Of a stretch of 41,741 nt of DNA, positions 28,376 to 41,741 are shown in pieces. Below the pieces are notes generated by a model. It was given only the letters and a program-made list of their open reading frames with translations, did not search any database and had not been told where the DNA came from. Made by a program: the position numbers and the translations under genes. Location: IMG/VR virus record IMGVR_UViG_3300045988_117301. One strand, given 5' to 3'. The stretch is from a virus. Its lineage: Duplodnaviria > Heunggongvirae > Uroviricota > Caudoviricetes. Within the stretch, counting starts at the first letter, position 1; each line of letters starts with the position of its first letter.

Positions 28376-28603
28376 TTACTGGCAGCGTCTGAATTTATTC
28401 CCGTACCCGCCGTTATCCTTCGCCAGACCCGCCAGAACTAACTGAGTCAGTATTAACTGGCACCGGGCTTCGCTTACTCCGGTAGTTCTCGTCATCATGC
28501 GTGGCGTTACCCACTTGTCAGCAGGTAAGAAATGAAGGACTGCGGCGGCGGTTTCTGTCATATCTTGCTGTTTTAGCATGTCTTTTTCCCTTCTGGTTAA
28601 CAT
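28376..28603 (-). CDS. Hypothetical small protein, possible winged-helix regulator
   Basis: 75-aa ORF with ATG start upstream of the methyltransferase; helix-rich segment TGVSEARCQLILTQLVLAGLAKD. Confidence 0.4.
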   Translation of the reverse strand: MLTRREKDMLKQQDMTETAAAVLHFLPADKWVTPRMMTRTTGVSEARCQLILTQLVLAGLAKDNGGYGNKFRRCQ

Positions 28604-28849
28604 GACATACCAATAACTCTTGTCTAAAAAGCCAGCAAGATAAAAGGTCAGTATTCACGACCACCAGCGTGTTTACTGTACTGCACCAAGTTTACAGGTA
28701 CAAAAAAACCGCTCAGCGGCGGGTTTAAGTTGTGTGGCGAAGTAACCACTCTTAACAGCATATTTGATTTTTTACGATTGTAAACGGTTGATTATTCATC
28801 TCCAATAAAAATAATTGTGTAGGTATGCCCTTAACAATGGATAAGAAAC

Positions 28850-29296
28850 ATGAATAAAATGACTGTACTATTACTTAGCGCAACTATCATTTCAGGTTGT
28901 ACTTCTTCCGTACCATTGATAAAAAAAACTCAATCAGGAAAACCTGAGGGGGTTTATCAAAATACGACAAAAGATAAAGTCAAAGATGCCCTTGTGAATT
29001 ACTGCAATAGTAGAGGGTTGATAATTTACAACGCTGATAACAGCAGTGTTATATGTGGTAAAGAACTGGAAGGCGGGTCTGCTGTTTTTGGACAAATGTT
29101 AATCGGCAATGCCTATTCAACAACCCCGGTATCAAAAGTCAGATTTACTATCGCTCAAGTTAATAACGATACAAAAGTGTGGGCCGATATGTGGATGGAA
29201 ACTCAAATGGCAATGGGGCAAGTACAACAAATGGCTATAACAGACAACGCAAGCAAAAACACTATCCAACAACGTCTTGATGAATTAAAACCTTAA
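28850..29296 (+). CDS. AT-rich moron lipoprotein
   Basis: 148 aa; signal peptide with lipobox IISGC (Cys17); markedly AT-rich codon usage; opposite strand to surrounding late genes. Confidence 0.65.
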   Translation: MNKMTVLLLSATIISGCTSSVPLIKKTQSGKPEGVYQNTTKDKVKDALVNYCNSRGLIIYNADNSSVICGKELEGGSAVFGQMLIGNAYSTTPVSKVRFTIAQVNNDTKVWADMWMETQMAMGQVQQMAITDNASKNTIQQRLDELKP

Positions 29297-29316
29297 GTAA
29301 ATTAATTAAATAAAAT

Positions 29317-29338
29317 GGGGAGAATAAATCGACTCCCC
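29317..29338 (-). terminator. Terminator hairpin about 45 nt downstream of Q (tR'-like); may also end the lipoprotein transcript
   Basis: Stem GGGGAG/CTCCCC (29317-29322 and 29333-29338), 10-nt loop; minus strand followed by TTTTATTTAATT. Confidence 0.55.
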
Positions 29339-29380
29339 ACACATTAAACTGATTCAATTACCCCCTCAATAAGAGGTCTT

Positions 29381-29746
29381 CTAACGATCCATCTCTAGCT
29401 CAATTTCTAACATCATTAACATGCCATCAACTACACCTTCAGCCTTTTGCAATAAACGCCCAACCCAGCAATCAGAACGCCCATGTTTACGGGCAAGCGC
29501 CATAAACGTCATACCACCTACATAATAATCCACTAATAAATCGTGCAAATCGCTGTTGTTCTTTTTCAGGCGAGCCATGCACCCACAAATGATCATCGCA
29601 TCATCGTCACAACATTGCGGGCGGGATTTTACTTTTGAAGGGATTAGTCCTTTAAATCCTGCAGCAATAGACGACCAGGTGACATCCTCGTGATTATTTG
29701 CCACCCATGCCCCCCAACGTTCAAGAACCATTTGAATATCACGCAT
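29381..29746 (-). CDS. Q: Late antiterminator Q (phage 82 / QuuD-type)
   Basis: [34 protein letters not shown]...[32 protein letters not shown] matches QuuD as recalled; start taken at ATG 29746 (track start is TTG 29761). Confidence 0.85.
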
Positions 29747-37329: not shown

Positions 37330-37740
37330 TCTCTCCAGACCTACAAACAAGGTACTAACAAAATTTGGTTGTAACACGGCGTATGGCACATGCGTCGTTA
37401 GCGGTCTGGGGACGTTAAAGGGGACAATCCACTCCTTGCTCGGGCAAACAAACCAGGTAGCCGGAATGTGCAAGTCAATGAGGATGCTGATAAGACGCCT
37501 AACCAGCGTGGCGATCCGGTTTGACGCCTGGGAAGAGACCAGGGTGCAACGATGAGGGCATTTATGGAACCGCGACAAAGTGTGGTGCCGTAACTGGCTA
37601 AGTGCTCTCAGCGTTGTGGTAATCCGCGAAATGGCGCGGCGGTAAGTATGGCGGGGTTACTCTTTCCCCGTTGAGGACACCGGATTGTCAGGTTGACCAT
37701 ACGCCTGAGTGACAACCCCACCACAACAGCCACTGCTTTG

Positions 37741-37788
37741 GCGGTACCAGTTTGTACACTTGCTTCCGGCTGGTACCGCTCTTTTTAC
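37741..37788 (+). terminator. Strong hairpin plus T-run in the early-left leader (tL-like terminator)
   Basis: Perfect 10-bp stem GCGGTACCAG/CTGGTACCGC with 19-nt loop, followed by TCTTTTTAC. Confidence 0.45.
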
Positions 37789-37875
37789 AAAACAGAGAAG
37801 AGCATCACCGGACGACGGGCTCATAACCCAATCCATCCGGGCGGCTGCCACCGCAGGTGTTCTTCTCTGTTTTGT
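37787..37875 (+). other. Long imperfect inverted repeat (18-bp arms, 17/18 paired, 53-nt structured loop); candidate structured RNA or regulatory element
   Basis: ACAAAACAGAGAAGAGCA (37787-37804) pairs with TGTTCTTCTCTGTTTTGT (37858-37875); no ORF explains it. Confidence 0.3.
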
Positions 37876-40589: not shown

Positions 40590-40618
40590 GAAAAAACCCG
40601 CCTGAAGGCGGGTTTTCA
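40590..40618. terminator. Bidirectional rho-independent terminator
   Basis: Stem AACCCGCC/GGCGGGTT with loop tgaa, flanked by an A-run upstream and a T-run downstream; between convergent genes. Confidence 0.7.
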
Positions 40619-40635
40619 AAAAGCACCAGCTATGA

Positions 40636-40809
40636 TCATGCTGCTTTGCGACGACGAAGCTTACCCTGCTGCTCTTTACCAGAGACAGTAGCGTGAGTGA
40701 ACGCATTAGGAGCAGCCTTCATCAGAACTTCAACAGCAGCACCCATACCTGCGAATGCTTTCATTGTGTCGAACTTAACCTGTGGCTTGGTTGCTTTTTG
40801 ATCTTTCAT
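40636..40809 (-). CDS. Hypothetical 57-aa basic protein (below the ORF-track size cutoff)
   Basis: ATG 40809 with Shine-Dalgarno GGGAG 6 nt upstream; translates MKDQKATKPQVKFDTMKAFAGMGAAVEVLMKAAPNAFTHATVSGKEQQGKLRRRKAA; ends at the bidirectional terminator. Confidence 0.45.
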   Translation of the reverse strand: MKDQKATKPQVKFDTMKAFAGMGAAVEVLMKAAPNAFTHATVSGKEQQGKLRRRKAA

Positions 40810-41005
40810 AGAAAACTCCCGAGACAGTAAAGGCGTCTCTAACCCTTTCTTTAAAGCTAGCTTGTTTCGCTAACTTATGCCAATCGATCATGTCGATTGG
40901 TGACATCGTTTCTTAGTAGTTTAAGCACAAAACGACTGCCATAGATGTACCTTTAAGGTAATCTGGACGGGTATCCTACAATTTGTAGACCCTTCTCGTC
41001 TATAC

Positions 41006-41539
41006 CTACTGAGCAAATTTAAGAAAGATATCCTGCAGCTCATCAATGACTGCCGACATCACATAACCGCACTGTTCCATGCGGAAACCAAAAGACTCGT
41101 AATACTGCACCAGTTCTGGTACTGGCTCTACAATGTGGACAACTTTACATTCAACAGCTTTACAAAATATAAAAGCACTCATAAGAGTGAGTAAAACCAT
41201 GCGCCCTTTCAATGGGTGAGATTCATCTTCTCTAGAAAACCTTTCGATCATATGGATACGAAAGATGTTTTCTTCAACCCCATAAACACAAATTGCTGCT
41301 CCTGATGGTATTCCCTGAACCCGACCTTGCTGAACAAGTTTTATGCAGAACTCATACTTTTCTCTGGAGTTGCCATAGGTACTTAACGCATAGTCCCATT
41401 CAAGCTCACCATAGCCACCACACAGAATCTTGTAATCATCATCACTGAGCGGACCAACAGCAAGAGGTAAGCCGACATGATCAATAATCAACTGGATATT
41501 GTTACGTACTGATTGACCTATCTCGTCCAGGGTAAGCAT
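41006..41539 (-). CDS. Hypothetical 177-aa protein, AT-rich cargo gene; possibly a divergent GNAT-like fold
   Basis: About 40% GC versus about 52% in phage core genes; C-terminal ...VHIVEPVPELVQYYESFGF resembles the GNAT motif B ending (Y..GF) but no clear acetyl-CoA Q/RxxGxG motif; Shine-Dalgarno GAGAGG. Confidence 0.55.
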   Translation of the reverse strand: MLTLDEIGQSVRNNIQLIIDHVGLPLAVGPLSDDDYKILCGGYGELEWDYALSTYGNSREKYEFCIKLVQQGRVQGIPSGAAICVYGVEENIFRIHMIERFSREDESHPLKGRMVLLTLMSAFIFCKAVECKVVHIVEPVPELVQYYESFGFRMEQCGYVMSAVIDELQDIFLKFAQ

Positions 41540-41667
41540 CATGGCCTCTCAAGCGGAACACTAAAAGTCGCATTATATCTCATTCTTAAGCCGCGTATGG
41601 ATTACACCTTGAAATGAAAACGCCGGGTTCCCAATAGGCTCCCGCAAAGTATATAACTACTTGTTTT

Positions 41668-41741
41668 TCAAAAACGGTACATCCTATCGAGCATTGGTGC
41701 AACGCTAAACCGACCACTCCAGTGAACGTCAGTTTTTTCAG
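41668..41741 (-). pseudogene. dusA: Displaced native 5' fragment of dusA (enters from beyond the window end, terminates in phage DNA)
   Basis: Minus strand reads ...EKTDVHWSGRFSVAPMLD then RMYRF and stop (TGA at 41670-41668); FSVAPMLD is the native DusA N-terminal motif, interrupted at the att core. Confidence 0.6.
41683..41741. repeat. attR: right copy of imperfect direct repeat, core TCGAGCAT at 41687-41694
   Basis: Aligns to 44-105 at about 79% identity; identical 8-bp core. Confidence 0.7.

Follow-up and report, generated by a model that had tools for sequence, protein, structure and literature searches.

The described systems closest to the locus considered here are the TacAT, AtaRT, KacAT and ItaRT toxin-antitoxin pairs, the Panacea network, phage morons and the dusA-specific integrase elements. 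GNAT toxins which acetylate tRNA carry a basic tRNA-binding surface. The subject of this work is a two-gene cassette at one end of a 41,741-nucleotide (nt) window, this being the whole stretch of DNA that was analysed (IMG/VR virus record IMGVR_UViG_3300045988_117301, Caudoviricetes). The cassette encodes a 177-residue protein with a predicted GNAT fold followed, after a structured spacer, by a basic protein of 57 residues. It shows no sequence similarity to TacAT, AtaRT, KacAT or ItaRT, and its small partner is not a TacA/RHH (DUF1778) protein. It also differs from these pairs in placing the toxin-like gene first, in its 196-nt structured spacer, in encoding an acidic rather than basic enzyme with a degenerate coenzyme A (CoA) motif, and in having a small partner that is common, unchanged, to unrelated modules. 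No RHH/TacA antitoxin lies upstream of the GNAT gene; that position holds a fragment of host dusA and the promoter region, and the partner lies downstream with no Pfam match. A basic tRNA-binding surface is likewise not indicated by the net charge of −10 to −16 and isoelectric point (pI) of 4.3–4.8, taking charge as a proxy for the surface.

The Panacea network (Kurata et al. 2022, PMC8832971; Ernits et al. 2023, PMC10440598) resembles the cassette in that one small family stands beside several unrelated toxin-type domains in prophage slots, and in E. coli the small gene is the third gene of a PanA locus. The small protein is not homologous to the Panacea family, however, and differs in having 57 residues, in being mostly disordered and in always being encoded by the last gene of its unit. 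Its sequence also barely changes with its partner, unlike that of a co-evolving antitoxin. Kurata et al. (PMC8832971) describe toxin-antitoxin loci that sometimes carry conserved accessory third genes, and by analogy the small gene would be such a gene in PanA loci. With phage morons the cassette shares its foreign composition, its own −10 box and terminator, insertion amid syntenic genes, and slots downstream of the late antiterminator (Q) or next to the attachment site (att). Unlike them it comprises two genes, between which lie a candidate internal promoter and an RNA leader of conserved structure. RimI, Naa20, Naa40 and Ard1, which acetylate protein N-termini and ribosomal proteins, have no sequence-profile relation to the GNAT protein, which has a longer β4-α3 loop and HPLKGRM in place of QRxGxG.

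The region 40590–41600 is an autonomous, horizontally mobile prophage accessory cassette, or moron, in a cargo hotspot between xis and attP/attR. We tentatively read it as a lysogen-expressed toxin- or defence-type module in which the GNAT protein would be the effector and the small protein a generic partner, and we give this reading a probability of about 0.42. The main features, in the direction of transcription, are as follows.

41572..41577, minus strand: −10 box TATAAT, 32 nt 5' of the GNAT start codon, assigned by conservation and inference
41006..41539, minus strand: GNAT-like gene, 177 residues, equivalent to mEp460 gp23 and belonging to phrog_4350
40810..41005, minus strand: intergenic region of 196 nt with a structured RNA leader, hairpins P2–P5
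40636..40809, minus strand: small gene, 57 residues, equivalent to mEp460 gp24 and belonging to phrog_2741
40590..40635, minus strand: 3' untranslated region (UTR; AUAGCUGGUGCUUUUUG) and intrinsic terminator, with a hairpin at 40592–40617 and then a T run, assigned by prediction and conservation

The two genes travel together. A small gene lies downstream of the GNAT gene on the same strand in 133/133 GNAT loci from genomes, viral contigs and metagenomes, which between them have 46 distinct spacers. These loci occupy different kinds of slot. In the window and in Salmonella the pair adjoins a PrtN-type xis at att. In Franconibacter, Atlantibacter, Enterobacter and Edwardsiella it separates the late antiterminator from the holin, in Photorhabdus it is embedded in a tail module of myovirus type, and in Pseudescherichia and Shewanella it lies at prophage edges. 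The att-proximal position, which the sequence-only reading had treated as a typical trait of such modules, is thus incidental, as most relatives have the cassette between late antiterminator and holin or in a tail operon. Among complete E. coli genomes the small gene is found in 562 of 5426 (~10%), including many O157:H7 and O111 strains, with the GNAT allele in 358 (~6.6%) and a PanA allele in 208. Placement is therefore variable, with five kinds of slot and alternative cargo in the E. coli slot, and is combined with a deviating guanine-cytosine (GC) content.

The GC content of 40590–41560 is 43.5% against 51.1% for the whole window, with 41.9% in the GNAT gene, 41.3% in the intergenic region and 47.7% in the small gene. 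The earlier figure of about 40% for the last kilobase was slightly low but fair, and the description of the region as accessory cargo of foreign composition, transcribed against the early-left operon, is borne out. The cassette carries its own outer signals, namely a conserved −10-like hexamer, which marks a predicted promoter, and a terminator. The hexamer (TATAAT, TACAAT, TAGAAT or TAAAAT) lies ~30–37 nt 5' of the GNAT ATG across unrelated contexts, as seen in ATG-anchored upstream sequences. The terminator adjoins the end of the xis gene and is kept, with variation in loop and stem, 3' of the small gene in every genomic context. It is considered the cassette's own first and foremost because it accompanies the cassette in all of these contexts. 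A bidirectional terminator had been proposed at 40590–40618; the hairpin is present at 40592–40617 but is at best weakly bidirectional, as termination is predicted on the minus strand alone and the plus strand offers just four T. In Enterobacteriaceae the 3' UTR of the small gene (AUAGCUGGUGCUUUUUG and terminator) is near-invariant across genera and cargo types, exceeding the conservation of synonymous sites in the open reading frame (ORF), while in Xenorhabdus it is not conserved. This 3' UTR could give rise to a small RNA (sRNA) or be bound by a protein.

From the first ATG the GNAT-like ORF spans 41006..41542 and encodes 178 residues. The real product is taken to be the 177-residue form starting at 41539, because the second Met is where homologues start and the GAGAGG Shine-Dalgarno sequence leaves a gap of only 2 nt to the first ATG; the same start is annotated for mEp460 gp23. 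The protein has a pI of 4.8 and a net charge of about −10, and nearly all homologues have a pI of 4.3–4.8 and a charge of −10 to −16, the exception being a lineage with a pI of 5.5 and a charge of −5. Such strong acidity is typical of enzymes that bind cationic substrates and is the opposite of that seen in tRNA-acetylating GNAT toxins. No match was found for the protein in Pfam, NCBIfam, PADLOC or the PDB (phmmer and profile searches), and PHROGs places it in the function-unknown family phrog_4350. Among 71 distant relatives Pfam gave a single weak Acetyltransf_1 match (1/71, E=0.006), and no sequence-profile membership of the GNAT superfamily was found through Pfam Acetyltransf_* or PDB profiles. 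The family is small, comprising 94 clusters in a profile search of 1.84 billion representatives.

The predicted structure is nonetheless that of a GNAT protein. The AlphaFold2 (AF2) model from a 27-sequence alignment has a mean predicted local distance difference test (pLDDT) score of 93.8 and full GNAT topology, with the core β1-α1-α2-β2-β3-β4-α3-β5-α4-β6 present. Foldseek returned 315 PDB matches at E≤1e-3, and among the matches listed all are acetyltransferases of GNAT fold; against the BFVD viral library only distant GNAT proteins were matched. In the model the fold signal is generic for GNAT and singles out no subfamily. Family-invariant residues include W49, H97 and E100 (the last two on β4), H109-P-L-x-G113-x-M115, Y148, G152 and F153. 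Within family A1 there is no variation at Y148, G152 or F153, and Y148 is kept by at least 90% of the wider family A2. Motif B with a catalytic-type Tyr (Y-x-x-x-G-F) is represented by YYESFGF, and Y148-x-x-x-G-F corresponds to the RimI-type catalytic Tyr motif. At the motif A site, canonically Q/R-x-x-G-x-G/A, the protein has H109-P-L-x-G113-x-M115 with one Gly in a 13-residue loop, whose backbone amides could still bind CoA. The GNAT gene has a ratio of nonsynonymous to synonymous substitution rates (dN/dS) of ~0.05 with saturated dS, and such strong purifying selection indicates a functional protein. Catalytic activity is likely on the strength of the conservation of motif B, the invariant H97, E100 and HPLxGxM, and the dN/dS. 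The sequence-only reading had described a divergent GNAT-like protein of 177 residues with ..YYESFGF in its C-terminus and no canonical acetyl-CoA-binding motif. The ORF and its C-terminus are as it gave them, alignment, AF2 and Foldseek support a divergent GNAT fold lacking Q/RxxGxG/A, and the homology and structure prediction that it proposed as a check lead to the GNAT fold and to no described family.

The 57-residue ORF proposed by the same reading is present at the position described and is a real coding gene because its dN/dS is 0.04–0.28; both ORFs are under purifying selection across genera. The small protein has a pI of ~10.5 and a charge of +7.6. It is probably disordered on its own, as its AF2 model has a pLDDT of 62 and one short helix at residues 22–32. 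The conserved core reads FDT..AF.GMGAAVEVLMKAAP...QGK.R.RKAA, and identity within Enterobacterales is 68–98%, with remoter members in Photorhabdus, Xenorhabdus and Shewanella. No source gave a Pfam domain or a name for it, and in PHROGs it belongs to phrog_2741, also of unknown function. Neither cassette protein was placed in a described family by searches of Pfam, NCBIfam, PADLOC, PHROGs and the PDB, in agreement with the initial failure to recognise them. Charges are complementary in every GNAT-small protein pair, the GNAT protein having −10 to −16 in most pairs (−5 in one lineage) and the full-length small protein ~+5.5 to +8.6.

The small gene also follows genes other than the GNAT. In 208 E. 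coli genomes the same slot holds a Panacea-domain antitoxin gene (PF13274, 2e-19) with a 4-nt overlap with the gene for a 139-residue protein, and the small gene lies 39 nt after the latter and uses the same terminator. This alternative cargo was seen in loci L133, L134 and L140 (E. coli and phage SKA5), in a slot equivalent to 40810–41600 of the window, and L133 has an additional CoiA-like nuclease gene between xis and the small gene. A MazF/PemK identity was considered for the 139-residue protein, but Pfam, NCBIfam, PADLOC and the PDB gave no support and it is retained as the presumed PanA partner and presumed toxin. In Xenorhabdus bovienii (L147 and L148, 2456–3671) the small gene lies 43 nt after a YafO-family toxin homologue; the gene upstream of the toxin encodes a signal-peptide protein and not a YafN-type antitoxin. 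The small protein is the only candidate partner at this locus. In Shewanella baltica the small gene follows genes for a 269-residue protein and a weakly HEPN-like protein, beside a canonical TacA-TacT pair, and in sister contigs from Shewanella the same small gene comes after the new GNAT. Two Shewanella loci (L149 1110–1906 and L150 1702–2498) have a TacA1 and TacT-like GNAT pair directly upstream of the small-gene cassette, so that two GNAT-fold modules are adjacent. PanA, the 139-residue protein and a secreted 186-residue protein have no similarity to the GNAT protein or to one another.

These arrangements show that the slot behaves as a cargo hotspot. From sequence comparison, the small gene appears to be a conserved flank across which cargo swaps. 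The dependence between the two genes is asymmetric, with the GNAT never found alone and the small protein common to several modules.

The intergenic region between the two genes contains the following elements.

40973..41002, minus strand: candidate internal sigma-70-type promoter, TAGACG (41002–40997), 18-nt spacer, TAGGAT (40978–40973)
40948–40960, minus strand: hairpin P2, TTACC/GGTAA
40880–40900, minus strand: hairpin P3, CCAATCGA-N5-TCGATTGG, an exact palindrome
40854–40876, minus strand: hairpin P4, whose 3' arm is AAGCTAGCTT (40854–40863), an exact palindrome
40821–40839, minus strand: hairpin P5, GAGAC/GTCTC, ending one base before the Shine-Dalgarno sequence
40816–40820, minus strand: Shine-Dalgarno sequence GGGAG of the small gene

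TAGACG and TA(G/C)GAT are kept directly 3' of the GNAT stop codon in 38/46 distinct intergenic regions, with 16–18 nt of variable sequence between them. This conserved hexamer pair is suggestive of a weak sigma-70 promoter for the small gene, with 8/12 bases matching the consensus. A promoter consensus scan reports neither this candidate nor the GNAT −10 box, both falling below its threshold. The spacer is 196 nt here, 141–197 nt in most relatives and ~93–104 nt in Photorhabdus, and the minimum-free-energy z-score of the region is −3.0.

RNAalifold on the full alignment including outliers recovered P3 alone; the helices were then specified by hand and tested on an unfitted alignment and one fitted to a covariance model. 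With 19 sequences aligned by MAFFT and no fitting, 86.9% of cells pair, compared with ≤43% when partners are slid by 1–3 columns. Double-change cells on this alignment number 16 against 6.9 expected, a count reached by 0/500 shuffles. Compensatory changes occur in 13/22 pairs of the covariance-model-fitted alignment, whose fitting leans towards structure. A covariance model of P3–P5 finds exactly one match per Enterobacteriaceae cassette, always in the spacer, and no match in the PanA, Edwardsiella or Shewanella versions. Many replacements change C-G to U-G or A-U to G-U, preserving pairing in the sense transcript only. Rfam 15 gave no match in 40810–41005 except one far below the gathering score on the opposite strand, the remaining sub-threshold matches lying in the terminator hairpin or inside the GNAT gene. 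Two other identities for the region were discarded. It is not sRNA-17 of E. coli K1 (193 nt, reported from an mEp460 prophage; PMC7719688), which maps to ~37.6–37.8 kb, 3 kb away. A 43-residue spacer ORF (40775–40906) was dismissed because spacer lengths differ by non-multiples of three and conservation follows the hairpins.

The window is a complete lambdoid prophage with ~99% identity to phage mEp460 across this end. It is bounded by an imperfect 65-nt att repeat (38–102 vs 41677–41741), and the last 55 bases match E. coli dusA in >4000 genomes; the attR at the end of the window is genuine. In free phage mEp460 the gene order is xis, gp24 and gp23 on the opposite strand, attP and int. The insertion point is the 5' end of E. 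coli dusA, with dusA on the minus strand, and the host gene leaves the following remnant.

41668..41741, minus strand: truncated host dusA 5' fragment, read by translation as ..EKTDVHWSGRFSVAPMLD then RMYRF-stop, with the TGA at 41668–41670

The fragment enters the prophage at attR (41741) in the same reading direction as the cassette, and the stretch from the fragment to the GNAT start contains no predicted terminator. The split dusA gene is restored by a phage-encoded replacement 5' end at attL (minus strand, start near 113), divergent from int (240–1337), and expression of the restored gene must rely on phage sequence 113–240. This arrangement matches the dusA-specific integrase elements (Farrugia et al. 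2015, PMC4482086), which have in common with it the insertion at the dusA 5' end, a phage-supplied dusA 5' end at attL and att-adjacent cargo (PMC4482086). These elements are the vehicle rather than the cassette, which is also present in phages that integrate elsewhere.

In the proposed mechanism the cassette would be expressed in the lysogen from its own promoters. The host dusA promoter would probably add read-through at this site, because it is directed towards the cassette with no predicted terminator on the way. The GNAT protein would be an enzymatic toxin or defence effector, whose target is most likely cationic, for example a protein, and not tRNA. The effector would need the small protein, which would serve generically in control or neutralisation and whose amount the structured leader and internal promoter may set independently of the enzyme. 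A toxin- or defence-type role had been suggested from the location and composition of the cargo. It is plausible from the swap with PanA in the same slot and from the YafO- and HEPN-type neighbours, but the simpler idea of a toxin with a specific small antitoxin is weakened by the near-identity of the small protein across partners.

Several observations weigh against the lysogen-expressed toxin or defence module. The small protein is 96–98% identical behind the GNAT and behind the PanA module, and because it is so across unrelated partners it can hardly be a partner-specific binding antitoxin. Its gene has a dS of 0.1–0.6 while that of the adjacent GNAT gene is saturated, as would fit a recombination flank, and the small protein may be no more than a co-transferred neighbour sharing the terminator. 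The degenerate pyrophosphate-binding motif with its single Gly means that the GNAT protein could be a pseudo-enzyme. As most relatives have the cassette in the late operon, it may be expressed in the lytic cycle instead of in the lysogen. Neither promoter showed a convincing −35 element, and PADLOC 2.0 gave no match for the window proteins or a Shewanella homologue. A broader idea is that the 57-residue protein is a toxin-agnostic safety, neutralising or trigger factor for unrelated effectors (GNAT, PanA-partnered, YafO-like and HEPN-like), acting without co-evolution on, for example, the ribosome, mRNA or a protease, with the GNAT version tuned by the structured leader. The cassettes would then form a new modular family of prophage toxin or defence units, which we regard as doubtful.

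Other readings of the pair were weighed against that of an effector with a generic partner. In one resembling type VII toxin-antitoxin systems, the GNAT protein acetylates lysines or the N-terminus of the small protein, neutralising a toxic peptide that binds nucleic acid, ribosome or membrane, or activating it. The strictly complementary charges of all pairs would suit an enzyme and its substrate, as would the conserved lysines of the small protein, of which K5, K31 and K50 are invariant, and its disorder, a property of many acetyltransferase substrates; the long structured 5' leader also recalls tightly controlled small toxins. This reading is unlikely, given that the small gene is common without any GNAT and that in such loci its upstream neighbour is itself of toxin type (YafO-like or HEPN-like) and no modifier. 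It is similarly improbable that the GNAT is a lysogenic-conversion detoxifier whose substrate for acetylation is a small cationic compound, such as an aminoglycoside, a polyamine, a peptide antibiotic or a streptothricin-like molecule, to the advantage of the lysogen, with the small gene an unrelated neighbour that shares its terminator. Aminoglycoside and polyamine N-acetyltransferases have a very acidic surface charge, like that of the GNAT protein, and SpeG and a glycylthricin acetyltransferase are among its fold matches. Strong purifying selection on the GNAT gene and the promoter-to-terminator moron architecture agree with such a role, and the near-identity of the small gene across cargoes fits a mere flank. 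Yet the small gene accompanies the GNAT in every case, across five or more insertion contexts and among homologues as distant as 42% identity, the GNAT has no sequence relation to any resistance acetyltransferase family, and the neighbours that replace it are toxin-antitoxin modules rather than resistance genes. A canonical pair of the TacT/AtaT/KacT type, in which the GNAT acetylates aminoacyl-tRNA and the 57-residue protein is its specific antitoxin, would account for a two-gene module on a mobile element whose toxin-like gene is never without the small gene. We consider it very unlikely in view of the missing RHH/TacA (DUF1778) antitoxin, the reversed gene order, the 196-nt spacer and a charge of −10 to −16, the opposite of a basic tRNA-binding surface. 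The small protein is moreover near-identical with unrelated partners, and a genuine TacA-TacT stands beside the Shewanella cassette as a separate module.

The genomic context bears on a role in lytic growth. The GNAT anti-CRISPR AcrVA5 acetylates and inactivates Cas12a, and a comparable anti-defence or host-takeover factor could disable a host immunity or housekeeping protein in the same way. Phages commonly encode GNAT-fold proteins, and in most relatives the cassette is co-oriented with late genes, between antiterminator and holin or in a tail operon, and so would be transcribed late. The cassettes of the window, Salmonella and Shewanella are instead convergent with the early operon, shielded by a terminator and equipped with their own −10 box, the usual signature of a lysogen-expressed moron. 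Late expression would also be too late for most such roles and the same slot alternates with toxin-antitoxin modules, making this account distinctly unlikely. With regard to control of the module, the sequence-only reading had seen operator-like palindromes in the intergenic region. Both are exact, and the hairpin at 40821–40839 is present; with a conserved region and a basic small protein, a model can be drawn in which a dimeric regulator, possibly the small protein itself, binds these palindromes and represses the module. DNA operators are argued against because the U-G and G-U replacements pair in sense RNA only: homologue arms change C to U and A to G, which keeps sense RNA pairing and breaks DNA symmetry. 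Loops vary freely while stems covary, AAGCTAGCTT is one arm of P4 and is not conserved as a palindrome, no DNA-binding fold is predicted for the small protein, and the palindromes lie downstream of the candidate promoter and not over it. The operator model is thus highly improbable, and the palindromes are better read as stems and arms of RNA hairpins. The lysogen-expressed toxin or defence module with a generic small partner remains the preferred reading of the cassette.

Two further features of the prophage lie outside the cassette. A second low-GC island at 28500–29500 (39–40% GC) contains a 148-residue ORF (28850–29296, plus strand) which is opposed to its neighbours, has no Pfam match and is possibly another moron. 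At 37590–37790 the minus strand carries a homologue of sRNA-17, the ArcA-modulated RNA of E. coli K1 RS218 (PMC7719688); this homologue has no relation to the cassette. The two RNAs agree over the first ~65 nt only (AAAAGAGCGGTACCAGCCGGAAGCAAG..GTTGTGGTG) and are divergent thereafter, and the copy in the window represents the 'degenerate' form that PMC7719688 lists for many strains.

The GNAT fold, the moron concept and the integration site are already known. The GNAT family without a profile in any library, the promiscuous 57-residue partner and the RNA leader are new. No paper was found describing this GNAT family, the 57-residue protein or the leader, the nearest published element being sRNA-17. 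The view of the locus as a candidate for an undescribed accessory system has held up, as it matches no described family and has good claims to be a toxin- or defence-type module not yet described. The locus illustrates in compact form a cargo hotspot beside attP of dusA-integrating phages, where alternative modules replace one another and the flanks stay fixed, and its leader makes a clean candidate for a cis-regulatory RNA family not described before. If the GNAT protein is a toxin or defence effector acting on a protein or other cationic target, the range of GNAT toxins would reach past tRNA acetylation. Should the small protein be a generic partner of unrelated toxins, it would be a new node in a combinatorial toxin-antitoxin and defence network, and one small enough for gene callers and neighbourhood screens to miss.

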